From assembly GCA_965655095.1 (NCBI GenBank), contig OZ296653.1, positions 9,920,001 to 9,984,000 of the forward strand: a stretch of 64,000 nt of DNA. Reading direction: 5' to 3'. This DNA is from Haplodiscus bocki. Lineage: Eukaryota. The notes beneath the pieces were generated by a model. The model did not search any database. It was not told the origin of the DNA and saw nothing but the letters and a program-made list of their open reading frames with translations. Made by a program: the position numbers and the translations under genes. Shown piece by piece: positions 1 to 19,646 of the stretch. The stretch's first letter is position 1; every line of letters begins with the position of its first letter.

Positions 1-296
1 CTGGATTCTCTTCTACCTAATCAGGTACATGTACACACGACTGCAAACAAGAGTTTATAAGTAAATTTTATTTCGAATCGTGCTCGTCAATGTTCACCTG
101 TGCTTTAACGCGATTTATCGTTTTGACGCTCCATCTAGAACCGTGTTGGCAAGAGTTTTCGAATATCCAGAGAACTTGATCTTTCATTGTTGTAGATCAT
201 CTGGTTGTCGGGCCCTCTGATTAAATTGCGTGCACTTTCGAATTGAAGCAGGTCTCAATTTCCATTTCGGGTTCTAGTTTGTCAAGCAGTAGGTAC

Positions 297-1310
297 TATA
301 GCAGCAGAAACTTTCTTAAAACCTAAATTAAATTTTCCTTCATTAAATTTTCTTTCTTAAAACTTGAACTAAATTTCATTTCTATTTTCGTCTGATTTAT
401 AAACAGCTCGCGCTGAGTCAAGTACCCTCGAGTGCTTTTGCTAAACAAAGCCCCTTTTCATAACAGTATTTTACAAACAACAAAATCCTCTTATCACTAC
501 TCTGTAATTTACATACAACACTCTTTCTATTCTTTCTTCTTACATGCAATAATCTTCCTTTATAACAAGTGTACAATTTAATCACATACGTAACGTTTCA
601 ACAACTTTAATACAACACATTTCTTATCATTGACATAAAATAACGTTTAATATTTTCCGTTATAATTCACTGCTAGTATTTTATTATAATATACACTCTC
701 CATAAATACTTCGCACAACAATTACATAGCAGTGCTGTACTTTCTGTTTTGTTTTCGTAACCCGCTGACCCTTACCCCTCATCCAGGCCCGCATTTAAAT
801 CAGTGCAAATTTCGAAGTCTCTCTCTTAATCCTGACCAAAAATAATATCCGCCTGAAAATTCCTACTCATTCGTCGACAACAACACAACGAAAGAAGGAC
901 GACCCAGCAAACAGACGAACTCAGCCGCAACAGTTTCCAGCTCTTTCCCGAAGAAAAGAAGAAGCAAATCTCCTCTCTACAATTTGACAACCAGTCCTCC
1001 AGAATCTTCAACTTTCTCTATCCAGAAGTGCAATTGCCCCTCTTTGCCTCAACCAACAAAAGACATTATGTAAGCGTATAATTTATTTAAACTTTACTTC
1101 AAAAATATCTTCCTTTTTCTAATTAAAATTCTTTCCCAAAAAGCCAAAAACATTTTGTATTCACTTGAGATATCCCGCTAGCAACCACCAAACCAAAAAC
1201 ACCTAAATAGTAATTTTAGAAATTACTGAAGTACCATTTCCAATAACAGTCGTCCTCCGCATCCAAAACTAATTTCTAGCGAACTGTTTTAAAAGCATAC
1301 GACTGTTACA
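297..1310 (+). repeat. 5' LTR of element 1 (1014 bp, TATAGCAG...CTGTTACA)
   Basis: Direct repeat of 14130-15141. Visible differences are one TC dinucleotide indel (~820) and gcaacc vs gcatcc (~1184). Confidence 0.97.
1068..1075 (+). promoter_or_regulatory. Putative splice donor in LTR (AT|GTAAGC)
   Basis: GTAAG consensus at 1070; no ATG between 547 and 1067; phase matches the acceptors at 10269 and 13034. Confidence 0.7.
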
Positions 1311-1313
1311 AAA

Positions 1314-1331
1314 TGGTGACAGGAGTGGGAT
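1314..1331 (+). promoter_or_regulatory. Primer-binding site, tRNA-Leu-like
   Basis: TGGTGACAGGAGTGGGAT, 3 nt after the LTR; the complement ATCCCACTCCTGTCACCA resembles tRNA-Leu 3' ends. Confidence 0.85.
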
Positions 1332-1474
1332 ACCTCAAGTGAAAGGTCGTTTAAAAACGATCCGCGTGCGATTTTCGAAAATTGTAAAAGTGATTTAGTT
1401 TTTCCCCTTTCTTAGCTTTGGCCCAAGACCTTCGCCCACTGTTTTTCTTGTCACTGAATTTCAGTGCCCGCCAG

Positions 1475-1556
1475 CTAAGATCCTCTTCACCGGACTGTGT
1501 CCGAGCCTAGTTTTCCTAAGATCCTCTTCACCGGACTTTGTCCGAGCCTAGTTTCT
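1475..1556 (+). repeat. 2 x 41-bp tandem repeat in the 5' leader (again at ~3243-3324)
   Basis: ctaagatcctcttcaccggact(g/t)tgtccgagcctagttt repeated. Confidence 0.9.
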
Positions 1557-1714
1557 CCAGCTTCGTGCTGTGTATTCCGCGTTATGCGAGTTCTGGCAAG
1601 ACCCGCTAAGATGGCCCTTAAGTTTTAAGGATCTCACGTGAGTACTAGCTAAAACTTCAATTTTTCTTGAAATTTTTTTTGTACATTTTTGCTTTTATTA
1701 TCCCTTTTCCTTTA

Positions 1715-1984
1715 ATGTCCGTTCAGTTTTGTGCGCATACATCACCCCATGCCCGAGTTTTTTCTGTGAGTCCACCTTCACCCCCACCAGCGTACCGACC
1801 CCTGCAAAACCGTTTCCCGATCATCAGTACAACCTGCCTTTTCAACATTTTTCTCGCACTGACTGTCATTACGCTACTCCTACTGATAGCCGCCATAACC
1901 GGATTAGCTTTCGAAGTTCACGAAACCAGAAAACAGTGTTTCCGCGCAGTAAACGCTAAATTTTCAACAAAAGACACCTTTTGA
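1715..1984 (+). CDS. Putative small single-pass membrane protein in leader (89 aa from ATG; copy 1)
   Basis: PPPAY motif, hydrophobic FNIFLALTVITLLLLIAAITGLAF, then ETRKQCFR. Confidence 0.4.
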   Translation: MSVQFCAHTSPHARVFSVSPPSPPPAYRPLQNRFPIISTTCLFNIFLALTVITLLLLIAAITGLAFEVHETRKQCFRAVNAKFSTKDTF

Positions 1985-2431
1985 GTAGAATTTGTAATTC
2001 CGATGTATCTTTTTGGTTTTCCTGTGTCAACCACTACGAACACGTTACCTAAAGAAATTTTTATTCCCTGTTATTTCTGTCAAGTCCGCACACATCAAAT
2101 CCCAATCGCTTTTCGGCCCGAGTCCTCTTTTACACCGCATCAATTGAGTATTCACTATCGACTTGAAGGAATTCATTACCACCAACACAGTGAGACGCAC
2201 CCACTGGTTCAATTTTTCCCCAACACGAACCATCCCAACCACATTAAGTCCACAAGTAGTTTCTTCTTCCCAATCCTAACTCAAATCTGGAGAATTTATA
2301 TTGAATTCTTGTCGCACTACTTTACTGAACCCCTTGCGATCGTGTACCCAGGTAGTGGTCCCCTCAACTTGATGACCTCAGCCGCTAATAATTTGAAGTA
2401 GTTTGATTTCCTTTGAGTTTTTTTTATCACT

Positions 2432-3166
2432 ATGTCGACAACCGTCGCTACGGCAACGACCACCACCGCCACCATTACAAGTGCAGGAGGAACCACTTCT
2501 AGCACGCCTACCTCCTCCACTGCTACCACCAGTGCAACAAGTACCCCAGTTTCGTCGACCGCAACTAGCTCAACGCCTACTGCAACCCTAGGCACTGGTG
2601 CTGCCGCACCTTGCACGCCGTTCGCGACACCTTTTGGCCCCGGAGGTGCCCCTTTTGTAACTCCTTTGCCCTCATGCCTTATGCCAGAAAGTTTCACCGG
2701 TTCTGGTGATTTTGAGGACTACCTACAGCAATTTAACACTGCTGCCTTACTTTCTGGTTGGTTTTCACCAACCCATGACAACAGGCCACATTATTTCGCC
2801 CTTCGGCTGCGAGAAAATGCCCTACACTTCTACACAACGCTTTCTGCAGCCCAACAAACTGACTTCAACTTGTTAGTTGATGCCTTCCGGCAGAACTATA
2901 CAACGAATGTCGAAATACTGAAAGCAAGATTGAAAGCTGCCCGACAGCAACCCAATCAAGATATTTCTGCCTTTTTGTGTGACATTAGAACACTCGCGCG
3001 ACGCGCCTATCGCGCTTTTCCTCACTTAGTAGAACAAATTGTCCTGACTAGTTTCATCGAAGGCCTACGACTGTTACAAAATGGTGACAGGAGTGGGATA
3101 CCTCAAGTGAAAGGTCGTTTAAAAACGATCCGCGTGCGATTTTCGAAAATTGTAAAAGTGATTTAG
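2432..3166 (+). pseudogene. gag: Truncated gag copy fused to U5/PBS sequence
   Basis: Matches gag up to SFIEGL (one G/E difference), then reads through the duplication junction. Confidence 0.9.
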
Positions 3167-3482
3167 TTTTTCCCCTTTCTTAGCTTTGGCCCAAGACCTT
3201 CGCCCACTGTTTTTCTTGTCACTGAATTTCAGTGCCCGCCAGCTAAAATCCTCTTCACCGGACTGTGTCCGAGCCTAGTTTTCCTAAGATCCTCTTCACC
3301 GGACTTTGTCCGAGCCTAGTTTCTCCAGCTTCGTGCTGTGTATTCCGCGTTATGCGAGTTCTGGCAAGACCCGCTAAGATGGCCCTTAAGTTTTAAGGAT
3401 CTCACGTGAGTACTAGCTAAAACTTCAATTTTTCTTGAAATTTTTTTTGTACATTTTTGCTTTTATTATCCCTTTTCCTTTA

Positions 3483-3752
3483 ATGTCCGTTCAGTTTTGT
3501 GCGCATACATCACCCCATGCCCGAGTTTTTTCTGTGAGTCCACCTTCACCCCCACCAGCGTACCGACCCCTGCAAAACCGTTTCCCGATCATCAGTACAA
3601 CCTGCCTTTTCAACATTTTTCTCGCACTGACTGTCATTACGCTACTCCTACTGATAGCCGCCATAACCGGATTAGCTTTCGAAGTTCACGAAACCAGAAA
3701 ACAGTGTTTCCGCGCAGTAAACGCTAAATTTTCAACAAAAGACACCTTTTGA
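3483..3752 (+). CDS. Putative small single-pass membrane protein in leader (copy 2)
   Basis: Identical translation to copy 1, inside the duplication. Confidence 0.4.
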   Translation: MSVQFCAHTSPHARVFSVSPPSPPPAYRPLQNRFPIISTTCLFNIFLALTVITLLLLIAAITGLAFEVHETRKQCFRAVNAKFSTKDTF

Positions 3753-4199
3753 GTAGAATTTGTAATTCCGATGTATCTTTTTGGTTTTCCTGTGTCAACC
3801 ACTACGAACACGTTACCTAAAGAAATTTTTATTCCCTGTTATTTCTGTCAAGTCCGCACACATCAAATCCCAATCGCTTTTCGGCCCGAGTCCTCTTTTA
3901 CACCGCATCAATTGAGTATTCACTATCGACTTGAAGGAATTCATTACCACCAACACAGTGAGACGCACCCACTGGTTCAATTTTTCCCCAACACGAACCA
4001 TCCCAACCACATTAAGTCCACAAGTAGTTTCTTCTTCCCAATCCTAACTCAAATCTGGAGAATTTATATTGAATTCTTGTCGCACTACTTTACCGAACCC
4101 CTTGCGATCGTGTACCCAGGTAGTGGTCCCCTCAACTTGATGAACTCAGCCGCTAATAATTTGAAGTAGTTTGATTTCCTTTGAGTTTTTTTTATCACT

Positions 4200-5420
4200 A
4201 TGTCGACAACCGTCGCTACGGCAACGACCACCACCGCCACCATTACAAGTGCAGGAGGAACCACTTCTAGCACGCCTACCTCCTCCACTGCTACCACCAG
4301 TGCAACAAGTACCCCAGTTTCGTCGACCGCAACTAGCTCAACGCCTACTGCAACCCTAGGCACTGGTGCTGCCGCACCTTGCACGCCGTTCGCGACACCT
4401 TTTGGCCCCGGAGGTGCCCCTTTTGTAACTCCTTTGCCCTCATGCCTTATGCCAGAAAGTTTCACCGGTTCTGGTGATTTTGAGGACTACCTACAGCAAT
4501 TTAACACTGCTGCCTTACTTTCTGGTTGGTTTTCACCAACCCATGACAACAGGCCACATTATTTCGCCCTTCGGCTGCGAGGAAATGCCCTACACTTCTA
4601 CACAACGCTTTCTGCAGCCCAACAAACTGACTTCAACTTGTTAGTTGATGCCTTCCGGCAGAACTATACAACGAATGTCGAAATACTGAAAGCAAGATTG
4701 AAAGCTGCCCGACAGCAACCCAATCAAGATATTTCTGCCTTTTTGTGTGACATTAGAACACTCGCGCGACGCGCCTATCGCGCTTTTCCTCACTTAGTAG
4801 AACAAATTGTCCTGACTAGTTTCATCGAAGGCCTGAGCGATGCAACGCTTCGATGGGAACTTAGAAAGTCCAAACCAGCTACAGCTGATGATGCTCTAGC
4901 CCTGGCCATGGAATTGAATTCTTTCCTGGAAATTGAGAAAGGAGCCCCATTAACAAGCAAAATGGCCGAGACCAGCGTAAACGCGATCTCCCGTGAAACT
5001 CCTGAGCCACCCACCAAAGAGTGGATGGACGAGCTTGTTCGAACGCTAACGGACGGAATCAAGAACTCCATGCCTAAGCCGAGCCAAGAAGGATCCCGAC
5101 AGCGTAATAGCACGCCAAATCGCAACCAACCTTCTCGGTCAAACAGTACCGATTCACAAGGAACCCGAACGGTCCGTTTTCAAAACAATTCGAACGAAAG
5201 AAGAAATAACAGCGGCCGAGACAATAACTGGCGCGGACCCAACCGTCAAAATACGAAGTCTAACCGATCGAATGACAACAAAAACAGCTCCAAAGGACCT
5301 TGCAAACAATGTAAACGCGAAAATCATGCCTCAAACGAATGCAAAGCGTGTTTCAAGTGTGGAAAGATTGGACACTTCCGCAATGAGTGCCGAAGTAACA
5401 CTCCCAACAATTTAAACTGA
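4200..5420 (+). CDS. gag: Gag (Thr/Ser-rich N-terminus, capsid-like region, two CCHC zinc knuckles)
   Basis: CKQCKRENHASNEC and CFKCGKIGHFRNEC; position between PBS and pol. Confidence 0.95.
   Translation: MSTTVATATTTTATITSAGGTTSSTPTSSTATTSATSTPVSSTATSSTPTATLGTGAAAPCTPFATPFGPGGAPFVTPLPSCLMPESFTGSGDFEDYLQQFNTAALLSGWFSPTHDNRPHYFALRLRGNALHFYTTLSAAQQTDFNLLVDAFRQNYTTNVEILKARLKAARQQPNQDISAFLCDIRTLARRAYRAFPHLVEQIVLTSFIEGLSDATLRWELRKSKPATADDALALAMELNSFLEIEKGAPLTSKMAETSVNAISRETPEPPTKEWMDELVRTLTDGIKNSMPKPSQEGSRQRNSTPNRNQPSRSNSTDSQGTRTVRFQNNSNERRNNSGRDNNWRGPNRQNTKSNRSNDNKNSSKGPCKQCKRENHASNECKACFKCGKIGHFRNECRSNTPNNLN
5411..5417 (+). promoter_or_regulatory. -1 ribosomal frameshift slippery site T TTA AAC
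   Basis: In gag phase directly before the TGA; the -1 frame is open into pol; downstream gtctacgc...gcgcagac can pair. Confidence 0.85.
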
Positions 5421-8400
5421 GAACGTCTACGCCAGAGGGTCAACGCGCAGACAAAGACACTCCCCCAGGCCCACAAATTGAAACATTGAATTCTGTTGTT
5501 GATCACCGAAGTGTGTTCATTCAAATAACAATTTTTGATCGCATAATCGAAGCGATATGCGACAGTGGAGCAAGTGTGTCATGCCTTAGTAGTGAAATCT
5601 ATGATGCCCTCAAATTGAAACATTCTTTGAGATTGGAACCTGCCCTGAGACAACTTAAAGCTGCAAATCAATTGCCTATTGAGACGCGAGGCGTCGTACG
5701 CCTCCCTATAAGTTTAGGCGGAAGAAAATTTGAACATAATTTTCATGTTTTGTCTAAGTCGGAGGCCGATTGCCTCATAGGACTCGATTTTTTGGAAGAT
5801 CACCAATGTGATCCACTTTTTTCGCAGAAGAAATTGCGAGTGAATGATGATACTTTTGTCCCATTATATCACAAAGTTTATACCATACAAACTGATCAAG
5901 TCTTCCGAGTTGCTTCCACTGACAACGTTTGGATCCCAGCAGGTCATTCGATGATCATACCAGCCCATATCCCAGGATGGAAGCGCCCACCAATAGAGTT
6001 GGCCGCCGTATTCGAGCCGCATGAACGGTTCAAGGTAGACAAAGAGGTCAGTGCTGACCATGTCTTGTTTAATTTCTCCGAGGAAACAATCCCGGTGATG
6101 GTAACAAATACTGGGGATGAAGCGGTCATGATACATAAAGACACTACATTGGGACAATCCGAACTAGTCGCAACGGATAAAATTCAAAACATTAGTACAT
6201 TGAAAAGCCGCAAAAGCCCAAAACTAACCGACAAAAAGGATGCCAAGTACGATTTGAAACTTGTCAAAAACTCTATCGATACTGGTATTTCCCAGGAAGC
6301 AAAAGCAAAGTTCTTTAAACTAATCAATGAGTTTTCTGATGTGTTCTCGAAAAATGAATGGGACATTGGCCAATGCGATGTAACCGCCCACAAGATTCAA
6401 GTAGAACCCGGATCGCGACCAATTAAACTCCCCAACAGAAGAATGCCCTTACATTACAAGGACGATCTACAGGAAAAGATCGATGCTTTCCTAGAAAAGA
6501 AGCTAATCACGCCTTGTCATAGCCCATATAGTGCACCGGCTATGCTCGTCCCGAAGAAAAACGGTAAACTGCGTTTAGTAATAGACTACCGGCAGTTGAA
6601 TAAACAAACAATCAAGTCCTGTTGGCCCATTCCATCCATAGAAGAAATCTTTGACACCTTAGAAGGAAGTGAATTCTTTACCACGATTGATATGTCGTGG
6701 GGTTTCTACCAGCTCCCAATGGCTGAAGAAAGTCAAGATTATACCGCTTTTAGCACGCCTTTCGGATCTTTCAAATGGCTCCGAATGCCTATGGGACTGA
6801 CTGGTAGCCCGAATACTTTTCAAAGCTTGATGGAACAGGTTCTAGTTGGCCTGACCTGGAAGACAACAGTCCCTTATTTAGATGATTGTATCATCTTCTC
6901 TTCTACGGCTGAAGAACACATTGAAAGATTAAGAGAAGTTCTTGAACGGTTTCGCTCTGCGAATCTAAAAATAAACCCAACAAAATGTGAATTTTTTCGA
7001 ACTCGCGTCCCCTTTCTTGGCCATATCATCAGCAAAAATGGTCTAGAGGCGGACCCGGACAAAATTGCTGCCGTTAAAAAGTTTCCCATCCCTACAAATC
7101 CGACCGAAGTAAAATCTTTTCTTGGTTTATGTTCTTACTACCGTCGTTATGTGCAAAATTTTGCTGACATAGCCCGACCACTCCACAAAGCCAGTGAAGT
7201 AACTATAAATTTCAATTGGACACCCGAAGCCCAAGATGCTTTTGAAACTCTGAAATCTCGATTAACAACTACGCCCATTTTGGCTTTTCCAATGATGAAA
7301 GAACCTTTCATCCTGTACACCGACGCTAGCCTAACGGCTATGGGCGCTGTCTTGTCGCAAGTACAAGATGGACAGGAGCGTGCCATCTGCTACGCCTCCA
7401 AAGCTTTCTCGAAAGCCCAAACTAGATATTCTGCGACTAAAAGAGAGTTGTTAGCCGTCGTTAACTTCACACGACACTTCAAACATTACTTGCTTGGTCA
7501 GAAATTCACAATTATCACTGATCATCGCGCCCTACAATGGCTCCATAACTTCAAGGACCCAGATGCACTAACCGCCCGGTGGCTTGAAAAACTTGCCGCT
7601 TTCGACTACGAGGTAGTGCATAGGCCCGGAAAAACAATTGGCCATGCCGATGGTCTATCCCGAACACCACTTAGAGCATTTAATGCAATCGCAACTGAAG
7701 ACCCAGCTGCAGATGCGCCTGAAGAAGACCAAGAATGGCCCAACCGCACGAATGAAAGTCCACCTGATCCCAAACATTTCCAATATTCGGAGATCCAAGG
7801 CGATGTACTGCAATCAACTGACTCCATTGCGCACTGTATTTCAGCTGACTTCAAGCTAGGAGCAGGAATCGCTCGAAGCATTAAGCGACGCTTTCCAACG
7901 CAGTACCCCGACAAAGAAGCCATCGCTAGCGAAGTCATTTGGCCGCAATGGATCCCCGAATCGCAACGCTTCGTGTATCATTTAACAACAAAAGTGCGTT
8001 ATTTCCATCAACCAACGTACAAGGCATTGAGATTATCTCTAGAGGCTATGAAAAACCACGCTGAAAGCAAAAAAGTTTTGCGTATTAGCATGCCCCAGAT
8101 AGGTTGTGGCCTTGATAAACTTGATTGGAGTAAAGTTCGAAAATTGATTAAAGAAGTTTTCCGCCCTACCAACATACAGATCATCGTGTTTCTAAAGCCC
8201 TTAAAAGAACCGCCACGCGCAGGTCAAAACCCAGTTAACTCCTCTGATAATGCAGTTGCAGCAGAAACGCCTAATATTTCCGAAACGTTGACTTCCCTCG
8301 CATCGGCACAGAGAGCCGACCCAGCATTGAAGAATCTTTTTCAATGGGTCATACGTGGTACACCACCAAGTACCCACGCGTTACAAGGACTGCCGCGAGC

Positions 8401-10210
8401 AACATGGCAATTGGTCAACGAATTCCGAAGTCTGAAGATCATCAATGACGTTCTATGTAGAGAATTCACCCACAAAGGACGCCCATTGTACTATCAACAA
8501 CTCATACCTGCGTCATTAGTACCCCAAGTCCTAAATTCAATCCACTCATCGACCACTGGAGGTCACCTAGGAATATTCAAAACTGTAGAAAAAGTACGTG
8601 AACGTTTCTACTGGCCTGGTTTCCAAGAGGATGTGAAATTATTCATCAATCGTTGCGAACAATGTCAAAAAAGAGCCAACCCACCCAAGACCCATCGACA
8701 TTCTTTGGTCGAATGGACCCCAAGCTATCCGTTTCATCATATCGGCATTGATTTTATGGGTCCCTTACCATTGTCGAACGGTAACCAACACATTCTTTTA
8801 ATTGGCGATCATTTTTCGAAGTGGTACGAAGCGATTCCACTTCCCGACCAAACTGCTTCTACCACAGCTACGGCTCTTCTTGAAAATTGGATATGTCGAT
8901 TTGGATGCCCCCACAGTATCCATAGCGATCAAGGTCGTAACTTCGAATCAAAACTTTTTAAAAGTCTGAATCAAGCTTTGCAAGTTGACAAGACCCGAAC
9001 AACAGCCTTCCGGCCCCAGTCAAACGCGGTTGTGGAACGGATGAACCGTACGTTGCAATCAATGCTTGCCAAATGCGTCAACGATGAACAAAGTAACTGG
9101 TCACAACAGTTACCGTATGTCATGATGGCATATCGTACCTCGGTTCACGAATCCACAGGGTACACTCCACATTTTCTTGTCTACGGACAGGAAGTCTGCC
9201 TTCCTATTGATTTCATGTATCCAAATCCGAGTGATCAACCCCCAGCCGACCTCCATGAATTTGTGTCTGCCCGACAAGTCAGATTTCAAAAGGCGTACGA
9301 TTCGGCTCGTACAGCCCTGAATTTCAATCAGCGACGCAGAAACGCCCATTACAATCGAAAGGTCCATGGACCCACCTATCAAGTCAATCAAAAGGTTCTA
9401 CTACACAATCCCGTTGTCCCAGTTGGAAAGTCACCAAAGTTCTTTAGCCCATGGAAAGGTCCATATGTCATTTTACAATGCCTCAATGATGTGACCTACC
9501 GCATTCAAGAAATTGCAACTCAAAAAGAACTTGTTGTTCATTATGACCGACTGAAGTTATTCCATGAACCCCCACCGACCTCGAATGTACCAACGCGTGA
9601 TAAAAGAAATCCGAAAAACATATCTCACCCAAAACCTCAGCAAAAAGAACCACCAATCCCCGAGTACGACCACGATCAATGCACCTGGCATTATCCGTAC
9701 CATACCGTCCCTTCAGCAACCACTTGTTCTCGTGGCGTTGCTTGCACAACCCCGCCTGCTACGCCTGCACCAGCAACTACTCCAGTTGGTTCCCCCAAAC
9801 CTGTACTACCGAGTCCCTCTTCTTCCTATTCTGGAGCTACAGCACCCTATAGCCATGGCTCTCCCAGCACACCGAAGACAACCACTTCTCTCCGTTCAGG
9901 CACACCTACACCTGAACCTCAAACATCTGCAGAATCACCAGCTCACTCCCGAAGCCTTCCTAGCAGCCCTTCTACGCCGTCTTCTGTGAGATCAAAACCA
10001 TGGTTCCGCGAAGTCATTGACAATGCTTCTCGTACTCTTCAATTTGGTGATGCACCAACTCAAGCCCAACCTCAACGTAACCTCCGCAGTAGTACAAAAG
10101 AACAACGCAAAGCCCAACCATTATGGAAAGCAAAACTACCTCCTGACCTAAGTGATTTCTATTCCCCCGCCAGCTCGAAGAAGAAAAAGAAAAGTTCGCC
10201 CACTTTATAA
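5411..10210 (+). CDS. pol: Pol: aspartic protease, RT, RNase H, macrodomain, integrase (expressed as Gag-Pol)
   Basis: AICDSGAS; YLDD; LYTDAS...TDH...HADGLSR; HHCC, IDFMG/HSDQG/VERMNR, WKGPY; no internal stops. Confidence 0.97.
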   Translation, partial: FKLRTSTPEGQRADKDTPPGPQIETLNSVVDHRSVFIQITIFDRIIEAICDSGASVSCLSSEIYDALKLKHSLRLEPALRQLKAANQLPIETRGVVRLPISLGGRKFEHNFHVLSKSEADCLIGLDFLEDHQCDPLFSQKKLRVNDDTFVPLYHKVYTIQTDQVFRVASTDNVWIPAGHSMIIPAHIPGWKRPPIELAAVFEPHERFKVDKEVSADHVLFNFSEETIPVMVTNTGDEAVMIHKDTTLGQSELVATDKIQNISTLKSRKSPKLTDKKDAKYDLKLVKNSIDTGISQEAKAKFFKLINEFSDVFSKNEWDIGQCDVTAHKIQVEPGSRPIKLPNRRMPLHYKDDLQEKIDAFLEKKLITPCHSPYSAPAMLVPKKNGKLRLVIDYRQLNKQTIKSCWPIPSIEEIFDTLEGSEFFTTIDMSWGFYQLPMAEESQDYTAFSTPFGSFKWLRMPMGLTGSPNTFQSLMEQVLVGLTWKTTVPYLDDCIIFSSTAEEHIERLREVLERFRSANLKINPTKCEFFRTRVPFLGHIISKNGLEADPDKIAAVKKFPIPTNPTEVKSFLGLCSYYRRYVQNFADIARPLHKASEVTINFNWTPEAQDAFETLKSRLTTTPILAFPMMKEPFILYTDASLTAMGAVLSQVQDGQERAICYASKAFSKAQTRYSATKRELLAVVNFTRHFKHYLLGQKFTIITDHRALQWLHNFKDPDALTARWLEKLAAFDYEVVHRPGKTIGHADGLSRTPLRAFNAIATEDPAADAPEEDQEWPNRTNESPPDPKHFQYSEIQGDVLQSTDSIAHCISADFKLGAGIARSIKRRFPTQYPDKEAIASEVIWPQWIPESQRFVYHLTTKVRYFHQPTYKALRLSLEAMKNHAESKKVLRISMPQIGCGLDKLDWSKVRKLIKEVFRPTNIQIIVFLKPLKEPPRAGQNPVNSSDNAVAAETPNISETLTSLASAQRADPALKNLFQWVIRGTPPSTHALQGLPRATWQLVNEFRSLKIINDVLCREFTHKGRPLYYQQLIPASLVPQVLNSIHSSTTGGHLGIFKTVEKVRERFYWPGFQEDVKLFINRCEQCQKRANPPKTHRHSLVEWTPSYPFHHIGIDFMGPLPLSNGNQHILLIGDHFSKWYEAIPLPDQTASTTATALLENWICRFGCPHSIHSDQGRNFESKLFKSLNQALQVDKTRTTAFRPQSNAVVERMNRTLQSMLAKCVNDEQSNWSQQLPYVMMAYRTSVHESTGYTPHFLVYGQEVCLPIDFMYPNPSDQPPADLHEFVSARQVRFQKAYDSARTALNFNQRRRNAHYNRKVHGPTYQVNQKVLLHNPVVPVGKSPKFFSPWKGPYVILQCLNDVTYRIQEIATQKELVVHYDRLKLFHEPPPTSNVPTRDKRNPKNISHPKPQQKEPPIPEYDHDQCTWHYPYHTVPSATTCSRGVACTTPPATPAPATTPVGSPKPVLPSPSSSYSGATAPYSHGSPSTPKTTTSLRSGTPTPEPQTSAESPAHSRSLPSSPSTPSSVRSKPWFREVIDNASRTLQFGDAPTQAQPQRNLRSSTKEQRKAQPLWKAKLPPDLSDFYSPASSKKKKKSSPTL
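7778..8194 (+). other. TARG1/OARD1 (Poa1p-like) macrodomain inside Pol, between RNase H and integrase
   Basis: GDVL..DSIAHCISADFKLGAGIA...YHLTTK...PTYKALRLSLEAMKNH...ISMPQIGCGLDKLDW..V..LIKEVF follows the TARG1 motif series. Confidence 0.93.
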
Positions 10211-10269
10211 CTTTCACTCCTTTCAGAACGCTAATTTCACACCTTTTACCCCTCATATCGTTCTTTTAG

Positions 10270-12595
10270 GCTTCCTTTCCTACTTTCACTTGTCCTTCCC
10301 AATGGCCCGCCTCTTTGTTACACTGTGACCCACTACTCGACTCATCTCAACGATCAGCCAGAAGTTCCAGTCTTCAAGAAAGGCGCTGCCTTCCTTTTCA
10401 AGTGTCACGCAGTCACTTCCGAAAGTGAGAGCAAAGTTCGAGTGTTCTCCCCGTTCCCGAAAATCCCGGATGTCAATCTTACTGGAGCTGAAGAATTGTT
10501 GAGCCTAGCGAAAATACGAATAACCGGAATTGGTGGCATGTATGCCCAAAAAATTTGTGAATTCCAAGAAATCAACAAAACATATGGTTTATTAATGACA
10601 CAGTTGAAGGATCGCGTGGAATTGATCAAGCTTGAAGTGAAACAAGCAACAGATGAGCAAGGAAAGCTCGCAGACGTAATGAAGTCTTTTCTCCCGAAAC
10701 AGTATCAGAGGAACGTGGCGACGCTTCCACGTTCGAAACGATTTATTGGCGCAGTAGCTGCTCTTGCAGCAGGTGCCGGATTGATCCTGGGAGACCCGTT
10801 GAAAGAAGCTGCATGTACAGCTGTCTCGATTTTTAACTTGTGCGATGACACAAGCCGTTTGTCCCAAGACGTGGACCAGATCCTGAAAACGCAGGAAGAA
10901 ACAATAGCGACCTTGCAACGTGTCCAGTCAGCCAATGATGAGAACTTCTTCCTACTGGGTAATGAAGTCCGCGAAACGCAACAAAATGTTAAAAACCTTC
11001 GTGATGCCGTGAATGATCACCTACAGGTTCTCCATGATCGAAAAAATGGAATTCAAGGAGATTTAATTCAACATAAAGAATGTCAACGAAGACAAGCTCA
11101 ACATTCCCTCTTCCTCCAAGAGATTAGATATACCATATCTCATTTGGGTACCTTGTATACTCACATAAAGTCTTACCAAGCTGCGTTCTACGCCTACAAG
11201 ATTAACTTGTTCTCGACGATCTCGTCCCTTGCTAGTGGCCAAATAACCCCCCAGTTCCTCCTACCCCAAGAAATCGCTGACATTGTACGAACACTGTCAG
11301 AAGAAGAGAGTTATCGTGGTACAAAACTTACCCCCGCCATACAGCCTGGCTTCGAAGCTGTCTATTATGAGATACAACTCGTTTTAGAAGTCACGTTAAT
11401 TCCGCGCGGTATATCAGTTGTACTTGGTGTACCAATGAACTCCAAGTCTTCCACTTTCAACGTGTACCATGCTACCCCGCTGTATCAACCGAACGGTGAC
11501 AACAAGACAGCCTCCTTGTTCCAGCTCGCAAAGCCTTTCTTGGCTGTGGCTACTGACGATTCTAGATACGCCGAATTGGATAGTTCCACCTTACAACAAT
11601 GTTCAGGTAACAATCGGATCAGACTTTGTCGCAAAGGTTTCTCAACCACAACTGATGACACCCTCCTATGCCTGAGTTCTTTGATGTTCGATTATGCCAT
11701 CCCAGCATTGCGTAACTGCCCCGCCAATTCTGTGCTTTTACCTGACGCGCCACAAGCTTTTTATTTGGCCGAAGGATTGTATCATGTCATCTCCCGTGAA
11801 CCACTTCTTCACATGAAAAACGCCAGTGATATACATGGTGTCAGTGTTTCAATGATCCCTTGTCACGCCTGCATTTTGAGACCCAGTTGCCACAGTACCC
11901 TAACCCTGAATCAAGGTGATCTAGTTCTTGAACCGGATATGGACTACTGTTCGACGAGCCCAGAGCCCTTCTTTGCCACGATCGAACTGATCCCATCATT
12001 AGAACAAGTCTTCAAACATGTCCCACACTCCAATCATGTCTTTCACGCCTATTCGTTGGGCGAAGCACGTCATTCTGTCCTCAGCAGTGTTCGTATGGAA
12101 TTAGCAGAACTCCCGGACGTGCGACGCATGTCAGTTGATTCAATCGACCAACTAGCACACCCGATTGCGCAGTATTACTCATCAATTTCTCCGGCAACAT
12201 CACAAGCCCTCGAGTCATATCTCCCCTTTCGCACTGCCGTCTTGTTCTCGACTGCTTCGATTACCCTTTCTTTATTGACTTTCACTATCAGTTTTACCTT
12301 GTTCCGCCGTCAATGGAAACGACTTTTTCTTCATCCACACAAGTTCTTCAAAAGTACAAATGGACGACTCTTGGATGTCACGGACAGTCATGAAACTCCA
12401 GATACAGCCATTGATGACGCTTCTGTTTTCATCCAGCTCAGTTTGGACGAATTCAACGCATTAAAAACACTTGCCAGTGAAACCCTGAGACACCCACCCC
12501 ATAATAACTCATATACCACATGCAATGTCCCTCATATTCCTACCCGTGTCTACCCAGACATCACAGCCCCTCATTATTCCGAGTCTACACCATAA
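10270..12595 (+). CDS. env: Env, class I fusion (F-like) glycoprotein; start probably supplied by splicing
   Basis: Signal-like LPFLLSLVL; furin site RSKR (10730-10741) then fusion peptide FIGAVAALAAGAGLILG; heptad repeat; Cys-rich region; TM AVLFSTASITLSLLTFTISFTLF followed by RRQWKR. Confidence 0.9.
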
Positions 12596-12664
12596 TCTAA
12601 CTTAACTCCTTAACATCTTGTTGTTCTAACATATTATACACGTCATATTTAAAATCAGAACACC

Positions 12665-12816
12665 CTGCACTTTCGTGCCCCCTTTAGTACGGTTCCGTAC
12701 TCGGCTTGCCTAGATTCACATCATGGCCCAGCTTTTGCACGTTTCCGTGCCTGCCCTCTTGTACGTTTCCGTACCTGCCCAGCTTTTGTTGGCCCGTTTG
12801 CACGTGTCCGTGCCCA
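12665..12816 (+). repeat. Short imperfect direct repeats between env and ORF4
   Basis: ttgcacgtttccgtgcctgccc / ttgtacgtttccgtacctgccc / ttgcacgtgtccgtgccc. Confidence 0.7.
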
Positions 12817-13008
12817 CTTCTTGCTCAGACTTTGATCTGACCCTTGACAAATTGAGACCAATCATGTCTCCCCTGTCCTATGATTTCAGCGTTGACAGTA
12901 TACGTATCCGTATACGCGTACCACAAAAAAACTCAACAATAAGGACTCGTTTCTTCTCTTCTCCCTTTCCCCTCCCTCTTTTTCTTCTTTTTTACAATAA
13001 ATTGTGAT

Positions 13009-14052
13009 ATGTACTTATCATTTTTTTGTTTCAGGTTTCCTACTAAGCGTCCTTCTGGCTCCCCTCTATACACTTGCAGTGGCAAGGTTGCTGTAATCAA
13101 CCCGGGTGACATCGTCCACATTCTAGACGAGCGAGAATACCGTGTGCTGCGGATTAATCCACATTCTTCAACAGTTGTGCTTCGCCGGGTCGACGCAACG
13201 TCCAACCAACGCAGTTTCATGCGTCCTTCAACATCTGTCTGTCTACTACCCTCTTCTACCCGTGACGCCTCAGTCGAATGTAATGAACCAACCGATAATT
13301 GTATGTGCGAATTGACTCCGCCCCCAGTTCTTCCGGACGTTAACGATGGTTCTACACAGTGTAATCTCCCGGATGTTTGCGCCGCCTCTACACAATGCGA
13401 TTTTGAAGCAGATTCGTATGCCGCCTTCAAAAGTTCTCGATTCGACAGTGTAGATCGACTTGTCCAAGGCTTCGAAGAAGCCAAATTCTCTGCAAATGCT
13501 GCGTTCAAAGAGCTTTGTAACCAAGTTGACGCAGTAAATGAATTAAAAGCCCAAGTTTCACAACTCCAGCAACGAATAGCTACCCTAAATGACGAAAATG
13601 AGGCTCTTCTTAAACGAACATTTGAATTAACTGAAGATGTTTCAACCCTCACTGCTATTACCTCTACACATCGTCACCTACCTGCTCTGCAACGAATGTT
13701 CTTCCATCATCTACAACAACTTCCATTAACAACAAATCCAAACGAACATCCCCATAATCTCTTATTCCATGTAGTTGGATGTGCCCCCTCTTCTTCTCCG
13801 GAAATAATTCAAGAAAACATCAAATGCCTTCTTCAACAGCTGCACCCTGATAAAAATCCTTCTGTTCCTTCTTCTGTCAGCCAATACGTGCCCCTCGTCA
13901 CCATGGCTAAAACAATTCTTCTCAACAAGAACTTATTACCCACATACCGTTGTTGTGGCATGTTCGGAGTTACTAGACAACAAAATGGTCTTCGAACATG
14001 CAGAAAATGTGACCCCTTCTTACGGAAACTGGATGATTTAATGGACTTGTAA
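13009..14052 (+). CDS. Accessory ORF4: coiled-coil plus J-domain (HPD) protein; likely start at spliced AT|G (13035)
   Basis: 347-aa open frame inside the element; heptad stretch ~13500-13650; FHVVGC...IQENIKCLLQQLHPDKN...AKTILLN...TYRCCG aligns with the DnaJ J-domain. Confidence 0.8.
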   Translation: MYLSFFCFRFPTKRPSGSPLYTCSGKVAVINPGDIVHILDEREYRVLRINPHSSTVVLRRVDATSNQRSFMRPSTSVCLLPSSTRDASVECNEPTDNCMCELTPPPVLPDVNDGSTQCNLPDVCAASTQCDFEADSYAAFKSSRFDSVDRLVQGFEEAKFSANAAFKELCNQVDAVNELKAQVSQLQQRIATLNDENEALLKRTFELTEDVSTLTAITSTHRHLPALQRMFFHHLQQLPLTTNPNEHPHNLLFHVVGCAPSSSPEIIQENIKCLLQQLHPDKNPSVPSSVSQYVPLVTMAKTILLNKNLLPTYRCCGMFGVTRQQNGLRTCRKCDPFLRKLDDLMDL

Positions 14053-14095
14053 AGCACACTTTTTCAACTTCTTCCGCTCTTCACTACTTAATTGC

Positions 14096-14129
14096 TTTGC
14101 GGGACGCAAACCCAGTAAAATGAGAGCAG
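14096..14129 (+). promoter_or_regulatory. Pre-PPT hairpin and polypurine tract
   Basis: tttgcg-gga-cgcaaa stem-loop, then purine-rich aaaatgagagcag abutting the 3' LTR. Confidence 0.65.
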
Positions 14130-15141
14130 TATAGCAGCAGAAACTTTCTTAAAACCTAAATTAAATTTTCCTTCATTAAATTTTCTTTCTTAAAACTTGA
14201 ACTAAATTTCATTTCTATTTTCGTCTGATTTATAAACAGCTCGCGCTGAGTCAAGTACCCTCGAGTGCTTTTGCTAAACAAAGCCCCTTTTCATAACAGT
14301 ATTTTACAAACAACAAAATCCTCTTATCACTACTCTGTAATTTACATACAACACTCTTTCTATTCTTTCTTCTTACATGCAATAATCTTCCTTTATAACA
14401 AGTGTACAATTTAATCACATACGTAACGTTTCAACAACTTTAATACAACACATTTCTTATCATTGACATAAAATAACGTTTAATATTTTCCGTTATAATT
14501 CACTGCTAGTATTTTATTATAATATACACTCTCCATAAATACTTCGCACAACAATTACATAGCAGTGCTGTACTTTCTGTTTTGTTTTCGTAACCCGCTG
14601 ACCCTTACCCCTCATCCAGGCCCGCATTTAAATCAGTGCAAATTTCGAAGTCTCTCTTAATCCTGACCAAAAATAATATCCGCCTGAAAATTCCTACTCA
14701 TTCGTCGACAACAACACAACGAAAGAAGGACGACCCAGCAAACAGACGAACTCAGCCGCAACAGTTTCCAGCTCTTTCCCGAAGAAAAGAAGAAGCAAAT
14801 CTCCTCTCTACAATTTGACAACCAGTCCTCCAGAATCTTCAACTTTCTCTATCCAGAAGTGCAATTGCCCCTCTTTGCCTCAACCAACAAAAGACATTAT
14901 GTAAGCGTATAATTTATTTAAACTTTACTTCAAAAATATCTTCCTTTTTCTAATTAAAATTCTTTCCCAAAAAGCCAAAAACATTTTGTATTCACTTGAG
15001 ATATCCCGCTAGCATCCACCAAACCAAAAACACCTAAATAGTAATTTTAGAAATTACTGAAGTACCATTTCCAATAACAGTCGTCCTCCGCATCCAAAAC
15101 TAATTTCTAGCGAACTGTTTTAAAAGCATACGACTGTTACA
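14130..15141 (+). repeat. 3' LTR of element 1 (1012 bp)
   Basis: Repeat of 297-1310, followed by TSD GTAC. Confidence 0.97.
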
Positions 15142-16204
15142 GTACAAAGACAATTGAGTTTTCAAACTGTGATGCTGCTCCAACTCAATTTAATAACTTC
15201 AAGTAAGTTTGTTGACACTGATATACGAATTATGTCTGATCTGTTGAGGTAATCTTGGTTTTCAATAAAATAACCTTGACATAATTGATTCTGCTGTTTA
15301 CTTCCAAGTCGTAATCGAAATTATTAGTGGTTGGTGAACACGAGGCATATGTTATAGAAGTTATTCTTTGTTCTGGTTACTAGTCTGTACGCTGTGATAC
15401 AGTAATACTTTCCGATGCATGCCCTCTTGAGCCGTCAGTGTCGAGATGTCGTTAAAAGTTATCAAGCCTTGTCAAATTTCACAAAACTGGGTACAATGTT
15501 TCGGAGAAAGTCCAACTTTCTGCTTGTCTCTGATGTGAACTTTCAAACTTTTTTCCATTCATAGCGATTGTGACAACTGTTATTAACAAAAAGGATTTTT
15601 TTTCCATCAGGCGGTAGATTGGATACCAGCCGAACTTCAGAAAGAGGCTAAACTTAACACGAAGAGCTGTAGAAAATATGAAGCATGAAAAAAATGCATG
15701 AATGCTACAAAACTGGCGATCCGGTCAGCGGAATATGAGCATGACTAGCAACATTCCTTTTAATGTTGCGAAATTGTTATATACTGAAATGGATGCACTT
15801 CATAAAATGTTTGTTCATTTTTTTCAAGCTTCCAATCAATTACAGCTGTAGCGAAAAAAGAAGGCATTGTACCGCCACAATAATTTAAATACTCCTATGT
15901 TCAAAAACCTTGCTGGATTGCTTAGTTAAATTCACTGGACAATTTTAAACAAGAAACACATGCGAATTAAATTTACCCAATTTTAACACATGGCGTGGTC
16001 TAACACACGCGTTTCTGTCAACTTCGTTTAGACCGCTAATTATTCAATTCAATGGGGGTTTGGGGGAACTCCTTGGTTTTGGGGAATTAAATCTGCCAAT
16101 GGGCAAAATTTTTGAGTGGGGCAAAAATACACCAAATAGGTCAAAAATCTTTGAAAAGTGATGTGGGCTTCCGAAAAAACAGACTACTCACGTGGACAAA
16201 TGTT

Positions 16205-16519: not shown

Positions 16520-17314
16520 AACCCTGGTTACGCCGGCCGTCAAGAACTTCCTGAAAACTTGAAGATCATGTTCCGGACAGTTGCGATGATGGTTCCAGAC
16601 CGCGCCATTATCATCAGGGTGAAACTCGCCAGCTGTGGTTTCCTGGAAAACATTGACTTGTCTGGAAAATTTTACACTTTGTACAAACTGTGTGAAGAAC
16701 AACTCTCTAAACAAGTACATTACGATTTCGGATTACGTAATATCTTGTCGGTTCTGCGAACATTGGGATCCGAAAAAAGAAAAAGTCCGACTGACCCTGA
16801 AAATAAAACGGTCATGCGAGTTTTACGAGACATGAATCTTTCCAAACTCATTGACGAAGATGAAGGATTGTTCCAGTCACTTATCGACGACCTTTTCCCA
16901 GGAATGACCCTGGACACGAAAGGATACCCTGACTTGGAAAGAACAATTGACCGAATTGTAAACAACGCTGGCAATTTGGTCAACCATAAAGACTGGAACT
17001 TGAAAATAATTCAACTGTTCGAGACCCAAAGGGTGCGTTGGGGTATCATGACCCTAGGTCCCACAGGTGCGGGGAAGACAACCTGCATAAACACCTTATT
17101 GAAGTCTTTCACAGAGCAGGGAATCCCCCACAAGGAAATGCGCATGAATCCTAAAGCAATCACTGCTCCCCAGATGTTCGGCAGACTCGACGTGGCCACA
17201 AATGATTGGACAGATGGAATATTCTCAACACTTTGGCGCAAAACTCACAAAGCGCGGGAAAACGAGCACATCTGGCTGGTGCTGGACGGGCCCGTGGATG
17301 CCATCTGGATTGAG
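16520..17314 (+). CDS. Axonemal outer-arm dynein heavy chain (DNAH5/DNAH8-like) exon: end of AAA1 to AAA2
   Basis: tag|AAC CCT GGT ([15 protein letters not shown]), HYDFGLRN, Walker [20 protein letters not shown]|gtgaat. Confidence 0.95.
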
Positions 17315-17683
17315 GTGAATTGAAAACTTTTTCTTCTCTGCGCTCAGTTTCGTAAATAATTTTGAGAAAATGAAAATTTTGGCCAAATTTTGTCACTTTT
17401 TTCAAAGTTGTTTTGAATGTTACAAGGATGAATGGAATATATGCTCCAAGGGAAATTTTGTTTCTTCTGAAGTTTCATCTCTATATTTCTGTCAAAACCC
17501 TTGACTATATTTTGGGTACGTTTTTCGACTGAACTAAATAAATAACTCATGCAAAAGTCACCTTCACTCGCTCGAAAACCTTGAGCAAAACTTCGAGGCA
17601 GGTAAGGGACCGCATATCAAGATATTACGATGACTGAAACAGTCTAACTGAACATTCTGCAATATTTCTTTTCCTCATTCCAG

Positions 17684-19155
17684 AATTTGAACTCAGTATT
17701 GGACGACAACAAGACTTTGACTTTGGCTAACGGAGATCGAATCCCGATGGCTGCCAACTGCAAAATCATTTTTGAGCCTGATAACATCGACAACGCTTCA
17801 CCAGCTACCGTTTCCAGAAACGGAATGGTCTTCATGTCCAGTTCTGTCCTCAATTGGAGTCCAATCATCTCTGGATGGCTTCGTGACCGAAAACGAGAAG
17901 AGGGTGATATTATCAAAGCTCTGTTCGCAAACTCATTTCAAGTCATTTACGACTACAGCGTTCAGAACTTGGTTTACAAAATGAGAGTTCTGGAATGCAT
18001 GATTGTCAAACAGATGATTCGGCTGATGGACGGGTTGATACCTGTTAGGGAGGAACGAGACGCTCCCACGGCCGGAAGAAAGTTTCTTGAGGCATTGTAC
18101 ACCTATAGCATAATGTGGAGCATCGGTGCGTTTTTAGAATGGGATGATCGCCGAAAGTTGGAAGAGTTTTTGCGAAACAGCAAAGAAATTACGAACCCGA
18201 TGAATATGCCAATTGTGGAAAACGCTTCGAGTAATACGATGTACGATTATTACGTAACATCGGATGGCGAGTGGAAACATTGGAGATCCCAAGTAGAGGA
18301 GTATGTCTACCCGACTGATCACACTCCCGATTTCAACTCTATTTTAGTGCCGAATGTTGACAATGTCAGAACTGACGCTCTGATTTCAACTATTGGTAAA
18401 CAACAAAAACCGGTTTTGCTTATTGGCGAACAAGGAACCGCAAAAACCGTTATGATCAAAGGCAATATGCTGAAGAACGACCTGGAAAAACACGTTACCA
18501 AAAGTTTGAACTTCTCAAGCGCAACTACGCCGTACATGTTCCAAAGAACAATCGAAAGCTACATCGATAAACGTATGGGTAGCACCTTTGGACCTCCAGC
18601 AGGTAAAAAGATGACAGTTTTTGTTGATGACATCAACATGCCAATCATCAACGAATGGGGAGACCAGGTAACCAATGAAATTGTGCGTCAGACTATAGAA
18701 ATGAGTGGGTTCTATAACCTTGACAAACCCGGAGATTTCACTACTATAGTCGATGTCCAGTTCATAGCGGCTATGATTCACCCGGGCGGGGGTCGAAACG
18801 ACATTCCAATGCGACTTAAACGACAGTTTTGCATTTTCAACTGCACTTTACCCTCCGAATCTTCGATTGAGATGATATTCAGAAAAATCGGGTGCGGTCA
18901 TTATTGCAGAGAGCGAGGTTTCAGAAGCGACATTATTGAATTGGTCAATAAATTGGTTCCACTGACTACGATTGTGTGGCAAAAAGTGAAGAAGGTAATG
19001 TTGCCGACTCCTGCCAAGTTTCACTACGTGTTTAACTTGAGAGATTTGTCGAGAATCTGGCAAGGAATGATCAACACGATCAGCGATGTAGTCAACACAG
19101 AGCAAACTTTGATTGGATTGTGGAAACATGAATGCCAACGAGTCATTTCCGACAG
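17684..19155 (+). CDS. Dynein heavy chain exon: AAA2 to AAA3
   Basis: cag|AAT TTG AAC ([20 protein letters not shown]), [32 protein letters not shown], ends AG|gtaag; in phase with the previous exon. Confidence 0.95.
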
Positions 19156-19646
19156 GTAAGATCAAAATTTAAGATAGAAGTATTTGGTTTAGATGCCGCT
19201 CCGGTATTTTGCACCCGTTAATTACTATTTTGAAAATATTTTTTTTGCAAACCGCAGATTAACTGAAGCTCATTTGAAAAACCTTCCGATTTTTGTTTAT
19301 GTTTATAAACAACGTACAACACCATTTTTCTGGACAGCTTCTCAAAAAAAGGATCACTTAAAATCGAACTTCGGAAAATGAAAATTACTTTTTTCACAGC
19401 TTTGCAGATCAATGAAAGGTGTTCATAACTAACTTTATGAAATGATTCCTACATCAAATTTTGATTTGAAGCTTCGAACATGACAAAAACATCTCATGCA
19501 AGCAAATGCATGAGTGAAAGTGAAGAAGCGGGAACTAAAAACAGTCTTTTTGAAGTAAAAATAAATTAATTCACTCACAAATATTTCGTTCTATAAACTT
19601 TGTACATCAGCTCAACGGTCAAGGCCAACAATCAGTTTGTGGTCCA

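Follow-up and report, generated by a model that had tools for sequence, protein, structure and literature searches.

How does a retrotransposon translate genes that seem to lack a start codon of their own? This question is raised by an element at positions 297-15141 of a 64,000-nt stretch of Haplodiscus bocki DNA (the window). A preliminary description had proposed that a splice donor in the 5' LTR ends in AT, and that two downstream acceptors, one before env and one before a gene called ORF4, would each add the G of a shared start codon.

The element is a young env-carrying Ty3/gypsy retrotransposon. It has direct LTRs, a target-site duplication, a primer-binding site (PBS) and a CCHC-bearing gag, and its pol shows the Ty3/gypsy (Metaviridae) order of protease, reverse transcriptase, RNase H and integrase; a macro-like domain (~7964-8147), with a score under the Pfam cut-off, lies between RNase H and integrase. 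The LTR termini are TA...CA in this element and TG...CA in the A' copies. The PBS is presumably tRNA-Leu-like, and an ARAGORN scan of sequence L037 returned no tRNA. The first gag copy (2432-3166) is truncated within a tandem duplication that is absent from the other element copies examined. The element sits in sense orientation in the dynein intron preceding the exons listed in Table 1. A search for promoter and poly(A) motifs found no conserved TATA or AATAAA position, the viral_contigs set yielded 0 relatives among 36 candidates, and for one env family (P0068) this genome contains no close copy.

Table 1. Features of the element and its surroundings in the window (a slash marks a splice point)
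Feature	Position	Strand	Remarks
Target-site duplication GTAC	293..296	+	second copy 15142-15145
5' LTR	297..1310	+	1014 bp; 1 substitution and a 2-nt indel relative to the 3' LTR
Bases 1-2 (AT) of the predicted shared start codon	1068..1069	+	end of predicted first exon
Predicted major splice donor GTAAGC	1070..1075	+	244 nt before the PBS
Tandem duplication, ~1.77 kb	1292..4834	+	LTR end, PBS, leader, 5' gag; 99.7% identity
Primer-binding site	1314..1331	+	duplicate at 3082
Strong acceptor-like leader site	1395..1415	+	AG 1414-15; similar in C, C2 and H leaders
Second donor-like site CAC/GTGAGT	1638..1643	+	leader
gag	4200..5420	+	own ATG; Retrotrans_gag and CCHC knuckle
pol	5399..10210	+	-1 frame relative to gag (TTTAAAC at 5411)
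Competing out-of-phase AG	10225..10226	+	upstream of branch-like CTAAT
env acceptor	10231..10269	+	branch-like CTAAT (10231), pyrimidine tract, AG 10268-69
env exon	10270..12595	+	G10270, then LPFLLSLVL in env frame
In-frame ATG upstream of ORF4 acceptor	13009..13011	+	this copy
ORF4 acceptor	13020..13034	+	T tract, TTTCAG; AG at 13033-34
ORF4 exon	13035..14052	+	G13035, then FPTKRP in ORF4 frame
3' LTR	14130..15141	+	identical AT/GT site at 14899-14906
Host axonemal dynein heavy-chain gene	16520..19156	+	two exons

The donor reads GACATTAT/GTAAGC (A1068 T1069/G1070 T1071) with an A at -3, and the nearest preceding ATG, at 544, lies 524 nt upstream of the AT, which confirms the ATG-free stretch of about 520 nt described earlier. 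This AT/GTAAGC (1068-1075) can pair in phase with AG/G at 10269 (env) and at 13034 (ORF4), and both acceptors, with the frames that they open, had also been described exactly. Past the env acceptor, the first ATG (10302) is out of frame and the earliest in-frame Met is residue 90 counted from the acceptor. What had been overlooked is the J domain of ORF4, an ATG at 13009 that is in frame with ORF4, and the AG at 10226 that competes with the env acceptor.

Each of the 10 LTR types has a single GT[AGT]AG within 300 nt before the PBS, and it comes after AT, against a background of 16/133 for AT before this motif elsewhere within the same elements. AT and GT..AG are invariant in the 10 types, while positions -12 to -4 and +7 to +14 vary, and the distance from donor to PBS ranges from 144 to 266 nt. 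Within the A clade (33 copies in total), AT/GT is present in 25 of the 31 scored copies and missing in six; it is also missing in one decayed B-like copy. Reading by eye revealed a GTTAG donor in one host dynein intron as well. The preliminary description had further seen a start-stop switch in the ATG TAA of the unspliced site. This part of the proposal was rejected as a conserved feature, because ATG TAA occurs in 7/10 LTR types and ATG TTA in the other 3/10; where it occurs, ATG TAA arises incidentally from the donor consensus GTAAG.

Acceptors were ranked with a simple pyrimidine score devised for this analysis, because the only ~ten dynein introns in 264 kb were too few for a weight matrix, and the best site was picked blind to frame. 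Of 20 such picks, 14 had the phase that the donor demands (binomial 9e-4 at p=1/3), a significance that is overstated because the families are related; family and copy counts are likewise non-independent through shared kinship. Four of the 20 sites were missed (env of A, C and C2; ORF4 of H), and for the window env the out-of-phase AG 10226 was chosen over the in-phase acceptor; 31/31 copies have such an out-of-phase AG, 42-45 nt before the env acceptor. AG/G is in phase at env in 31/33 A-clade copies and at ORF4 in 28/29 scored ones. At the family level, this holds for env in 8/10 (A, B, C, C2, G, I, J, E) and for ORF4 in 8/9 AT-type families with a full ORF4 (A, B, C, C2, G, H, I, J). A G following AG is common at animal acceptors in general, and by eye it is found at 3/9 host dynein acceptors. 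Synonymous sites of ORF4 are saturated in 5/5 between-family pairs, and retention of the splice motifs therefore reflects more than recent descent. The conservation of AT/GT and AG/G in relatives, proposed earlier as a check, was thus confirmed, and the sister families strongly support that part of the proposal in which one donor serves two acceptors.

All three non-G exceptions have an ATG of their own at or shortly past the acceptor: F env reads AG/ATG, F ORF4 reads AG/A ATG, and H env reads AG/T with an ATG 15 nt further on. Moreover, env of G, I and J has an in-frame ATG 6-14 codons past the acceptor, ahead of the hydrophobic stretch, and the split start is therefore dispensable in those families. 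A distant relative on metagenome contig L141 has no G-type acceptor fitting the ORF4 frame, and the distant relative's env (L144) has its own ATG. The own ATGs in F, H and G/I/J env would suit messages in which the acceptors are real but the 5' end is another one (an internal promoter, the leader donor 1638 or a trans-spliced leader), with own or near-cognate start codons. Internal env promoters are documented, e.g. for Oikopleura Tor3b/4b in the accessible part of PMC4402516, and donors resembling the 1638 site are kept 240-325 nt past the PBS in eight leader types (A, A', B, C, C2, G, I, J); a non-coding leader exon reaching 1637, after the acceptor-like site 1414-15, is possible. Such an origin is nevertheless unlikely. 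No Met precedes the conserved N-terminal part in env of A, B, C2 and E or in ORF4 of eight families, the window's 1638 donor ends in AC, and another 5' end would leave unexplained the G that begins the exon with an AT donor, and the free choice of this base with an ATG TC donor. Given that neither gene opens with a conserved, usable ATG, and given the splice signals of the sister families, splicing likely builds the shared start codon.

ORF4 consists, in order, of an SH3/KOW-like beta barrel, a low-confidence linker, a long coiled coil, a J domain (HPD at 13843) and a Cys cluster, and its helical J fold with HPD makes it a J-domain protein. The DnaJ profile PF00226 scores above cut-off in B, C, F and H and below it in the window ORF4 (E 5e-4) and J, the HPD motif is nearly invariant, and J domains occupy the leading rows of a Foldseek search (best E 3e-3); an Atlas search with ORF4 gave no usable match. 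The predicted J domain probably recruits host Hsp70 via the HPD motif, and we speculate that ORF4 acts in particle assembly or in the handling of unspliced RNA. The ATG at 13009 is open and in frame in the window copy, and ORF4 might start there, or ribosomes might reach it on the env message through leaky scanning or reinitiation, with the split start serving env only. We regard this as very improbable, given that a 13009-type ATG is in frame in only 6/29 scored copies and is thus not conserved, that B ORF4 has no Met before residue 121 of its open frame, that ORF4 acceptors are more consistent than env acceptors (ORF4, 9/10 in the blind pick), and that H preserves AG/G at ORF4 although its env has its own ATG. 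A start at ATG 13219, the first past the ORF4 acceptor, would drop the conserved N-terminal barrel.

The env exon opens with a hydrophobic N-terminus and carries RSKR at 10730, then a fusion-peptide-like stretch at 10742 and a TM-like stretch at ~12239. As judged by hydropathy and motifs only, this post-pol ORF with its signal-like N-terminus, furin site, fusion peptide and TM has the layout of an F-type env. The window env found no match in Pfam or PDB; 4/24 env homologues matched Baculo_F (best 3e-8) and one Fusion_gly, and a profile search matched a 'fusion protein' at E 0.008. The structure model is poor (pLDDT 50), and its fold matches (TM <=0.17) are uninformative. Since env lies in the pol frame in 7/10 families, with B, C, E and J having it immediately after the pol stop, it might arise by read-through from pol, AG/G being incidental and inherited from a single ancestor. 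This has hardly any likelihood: G, I and C2 have env in another frame than pol, at least two stops separate the two genes in A, F and H, the signal-like stretch would be internal in a Pol-Env fusion, the splice motifs are unsaturated despite saturated synonymous sites, and ORF4 and the E genes are left unaddressed.

Family E constitutes a built-in natural experiment, in which the donor codon co-varies with the acceptor base. Its donor reads ATG TC/GT in place of AT/GT (ATGTC/GTGAGT in 21 of 23 copies, ATGTT in one), and its predicted targets are env, with AG/G in 22 of 23 copies, and up to four ATG-less accessory genes. The acceptors of the accessory ORFs are in phase in 51/61 cases by the blind pick, 61/61 have C or T as first exon base, compatible with a TCN codon, and 54/61 lack a Met among codons one to six; the second RING-like gene is in phase in only 4/8. 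These genes are under purifying selection, with dN/dS of 0.09-0.30 in 5/7 pairs with finite dS. Trans-splicing, also considered, fails to account for the co-variation in E. The preliminary description had not noticed the clade-wide design, with up to five target genes in E.

On the sequence evidence, it is highly likely that env and the J-domain ORF4 are expressed from separate spliced mRNAs, with a shared AUG completed at the junction. Transcription would start in the 5' LTR between 547 and 1067, and the unspliced RNA would serve as genome and as gag/gag-pol message. The exact junctions are predicted: splicing at 1069^10270 (a 9200-nt intron here) would give a signal-peptide-bearing Env, and splicing at 1069^13035 would give ORF4. 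Four runs, apparently of DNA and from one study (contigs up to 80 kb), were compared with positions 3079-15141; among 15 joints listed from a total of 163, none falls at the donor or the acceptors, a result that bears neither way. The donor may act as a plug-in start module that lets elements gain accessory genes behind env, because each downstream gene requires just a phase-2 acceptor; E, with its env and up to four small genes, would be an example. We think it fairly probable that this animal Ty3/gypsy clade has independently become 'complex' in a retrovirus-like manner, the phase-2 donor of the LTR being a start-codon module for universal use (with AT in most families and ATG TC in E) and accessory genes joining by gaining a phase-2 acceptor; the genes concerned are envelope, J-domain, RING-like and others.

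An AU/G start of env is already known in Drosophila gypsy, as the preliminary description had stated. In the available part of PMC12992720, exon 1 is annotated as 2 nt in gypsy, gypsy2, gypsy6, springer and gypsy3, and the env exon of the springer subclade is spliced from this AU dinucleotide. The elements studied here likewise have a phase-2, AT-ending donor and an env acceptor before G. However, the fly AU is found 3' of the LTR (gypsy 567-568, LTR 1-482; springer 444-445, LTR 1-404) and serves one annotated gene, whereas here the donor lies within the LTR in 10/10 types and would serve two genes, and up to five in E. According to the same portion of that source, the first exon of env in the ZAM/Beagle subclade lies upstream of gag and encodes a short peptide; the ATG TC exon of E is alike but would give just five coding bases, from within the LTR, to several acceptors. 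The 'ancient errantiviruses' with F-type env, as presented in the accessible part of PMC13524379, are also multicopy animal gag-pol-env Ty3/gypsy elements with a furin-like site and a fusion-peptide-like stretch; the available main text has 0 occurrences of 'splic', 'DnaJ' and 'macro', and seven supplements, as available, have 0 of 'splic' or 'DnaJ'.

Beyond these elements, HTLV-1 also makes one LTR transcript with alternative acceptors and several post-env accessory genes (available parts of PMC3504254 and PMC6921414). It differs in belonging to Retroviridae rather than Metaviridae, in its whole, unsplit start codon and in its unrelated proteins. HTLV-1 Tax and p30 borrow the env initiator. 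The C. elegans Cer1 protein CERV, likened here by expression mode alone, is an LTR-retrotransposon accessory protein made via a spliced mRNA and functions in genomic RNA export (PMC10309623, accessible part). Bdelloid ORF3s are additional 3' ORFs (PMC5408684), and Oikopleura Tor3a has spliced env messages while Tor3b/4b differ in using an internal promoter (PMC4402516); the available portions of these two accounts describe neither a split start nor a J domain. Literature searches did not find AU/G as a shared multi-gene start from inside an LTR, and their titles or abstracts held no precedent for a J-domain accessory gene in a retrotransposon.

These results reveal a conserved J-domain accessory gene in a retrotransposon clade. 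If the proposed splicing is true, the single-gene mechanism of fruit-fly gypsy would extend to the expression of several genes in a different clade of retroelements, and ORF surveys that require an ATG would miss or mis-start env and accessory genes of invertebrate retroelements. If the donor is indeed a universal module, genes plugged into it would escape ATG-based annotation.

We examined whether a single splice donor in the LTR supplies the first two bases of a split start codon (AT|G) to both env and ORF4, the J-domain accessory gene located 3' of env, as the preliminary description had proposed. All its coordinates were found to be right in the window. Transcription would start ahead of the donor, splicing would join it to either acceptor, translation would initiate at the junction and the hydrophobic N-terminus of Env would act as a signal peptide.

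Main features of the studied element and of family E
Feature	Coordinates	Remarks
Element (family A)	window 297-15141	LTR retrotransposon; target-site duplication GTAC
LTR donor	window 1068-1075	AT|GTAAGC
gag, then pol in -1 frame		protease, RT, RNase H, weak macro match, integrase
Macro-like domain in pol	window 7964-8147	flanked by RNase H and integrase; sub-threshold Pfam match (E 0.004)
env	window 10235-12595	stop to stop; acceptor 10269
ORF4	window 12943-14052	acceptor 13034
Family E accessory cassette	L044:2468-4552; L101-L120 (other genomic stretches)	gain, loss and replacement between copies

A single substitution and a 2-nt indel separate the two LTRs of the element, indicating a young insertion. 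It is intronic and in sense orientation within an axonemal dynein heavy-chain gene, in an animal genome of 1.5 Gb; strong acceptors and two donors are thereby added, and host splicing may be disturbed. Inside the next dynein intron (window 32650-64000), a ~1317-nt unit is arrayed in tandem in at least 24 copies, mostly 95-100% alike. As assembled, the PBS, the leader and the 5' part of gag occur twice in a 1.77-kb tandem duplication (window 1292-4834), so that the element has a second PBS and its first gag is truncated. Read depth over the 3' end of the LTR (14766-15141) was ~20-40 times that of the adjoining bin in four runs, which suggests that this segment is common to many other elements.

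Searching the genome with env, ORF4 and database homologues yielded families A/A', B, C/C2, E, F, G, H, I and J, those other than A sharing 76-88% RT identity with the window; env identity was 47-67%. The sample, a small fraction of the total, comprised 1-5 copies with both ends for most families, plus 33 A-clade and 23 E copies. A full ORF4 is present in all families except E, and its synonymous sites were saturated in the five pairs tested (5/5). A' copies (L039-L040, L037-L038) are nearly identical to the window in gag, pol and env, whereas the U3-side LTR and most of ORF4 differ (~62% ORF4 identity), a mosaic suggestive of module exchange via recombination. In one of them (L037 ~5092-5140), which lacks gag, the PBS extends into a longer tRNA-like sequence, in which ARAGORN called no tRNA. 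In families G and I, a fifth ORF of ~200 aa that starts at an ATG of its own sits 3' of ORF4 and ahead of the 3' LTR (L054:4040-4654; L062 after 3803); a Pfam search gave no match for it.

In 10/10 LTR types, about eight lineages once A/A' and C/C2 are merged, just one GT[AGT]AG occurs in the 300 nt preceding the PBS and AT stands directly before it, while AT precedes 16 of 133 other such sites and the columns flanking the donor vary among types. In each of the 11 LTR types, 108-526 nt separate the donor from the closest ATG on its 5' side. Within the A clade, 25 of 31 scored copies keep AT|GT (2 further unscored). The unspliced start-stop ATG TAA was read in seven of the 10 types; it is not a conserved device, because the other three read ATG TTA. 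AT-type leaders measure 780-1940 nt with 6-18 upstream ATGs; that of family E is ~440 nt and has none. A non-coding leader exon could be delimited by a strong acceptor just 3' of the PBS together with a second donor, itself conserved (window 1395-1643).

On the acceptor side, AG|G was read in context in the required phase for env in 8/10 families and for ORF4 in 8/9 AT-type families; F env, F ORF4 and H env, the three that depart from this pattern, each carry an ATG of their own at the acceptor or shortly 3' of it. When the most pyrimidine-rich YAG was chosen blind to frame, the pick fell in the required phase in 14/20 cases and on own-ATG env sites in two more, and missed four, including the window env. 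Across the A clade, the acceptor was in phase in 31/33 copies for env and 28/29 scored copies for ORF4 (4 unscored).

In the window, the first ATG after the env acceptor falls in another frame, and an in-frame Met is not reached until residue 90, beyond both the hydrophobic N-terminal stretch and a conserved block; starting ORF4 at the first post-acceptor ATG would lose its conserved N-terminal barrel. The earlier survey of start codons had located the donor and both acceptors correctly but overlooked an in-frame ORF4 ATG at 13009, with an upstream in-frame ATG present in 6/29 A-clade copies, and a competing AG at 10226. Since the 31 copies examined have a branch-like motif that either overlaps the latter or lies 3' of it, a scanning model would favour the acceptor at 10269.

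Family E lacks the AT donor; 21/23 copies have ATG TC|GTGAGT instead, placed 680-770 nt ahead of the PBS, which gives a complete ATG plus two bases, in the same phase as the AT-type donor. Up to four small ORFs follow env. Two of them look RING-like from weak Pfam matches, another is of unknown kind, and one is similar to the N-terminus of ORF4 on visual comparison. Blind picks placed 51/61 of the acceptors of these small ORFs in phase, 54/61 lack an early Met, and purifying selection is evident (dN/dS 0.09-0.30 where finite). Their exons begin with C or T in 61/61. As the third base is free in a TCN codon and fixed in ATG, this co-variation links the acceptors with the donor in the LTR and is the strongest evidence here, the E copies being related and their counts not independent. 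An RT tree, with a midpoint root only, places E among the AT-type families at an unresolved fork.

Relatives were found in four metagenome contigs. One (L142) has a family-I-like AG|G at ORF4 and another (L144) an AG|ATG at env, as in F. L141 carries env and, 3' of it, an ORF4 homologue (E 2e-34) whose frame fits no acceptor with G; this is either evidence against generality or a broken copy.

In the ORF4 structure model (mean pLDDT 76, pTM 0.38), a small beta barrel is followed by a disordered linker, then by a helix of 77 residues and a J domain. Top Foldseek matches were J domains and Spt5/ribosomal KOW-type barrels, with none in PDB and one in the viral library at E<=0.001; a profile search gave 57 representatives at E<=1e-30. 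The HPD motif of the J domain would allow Hsp70 recruitment.

An AU|G env start that uses a 2-nt exon 3' of the LTR has been published for the Drosophila springer subclade (PMC12992720); the split codon as such is therefore known. Env-bearing Ty3/gypsy elements are common across animals (PMC13524379), that report nowhere mentioning splicing. We found no report in the open-access literature of a split start common to several genes of an LTR retrotransposon. One donor serving many acceptors is the typical plan of complex retroviruses. The original observation is thus confirmed and its interpretation largely right, except that regulated switching between env and ORF4 is not supported: these elements very probably use a shared split start, wider in reach than was first seen.
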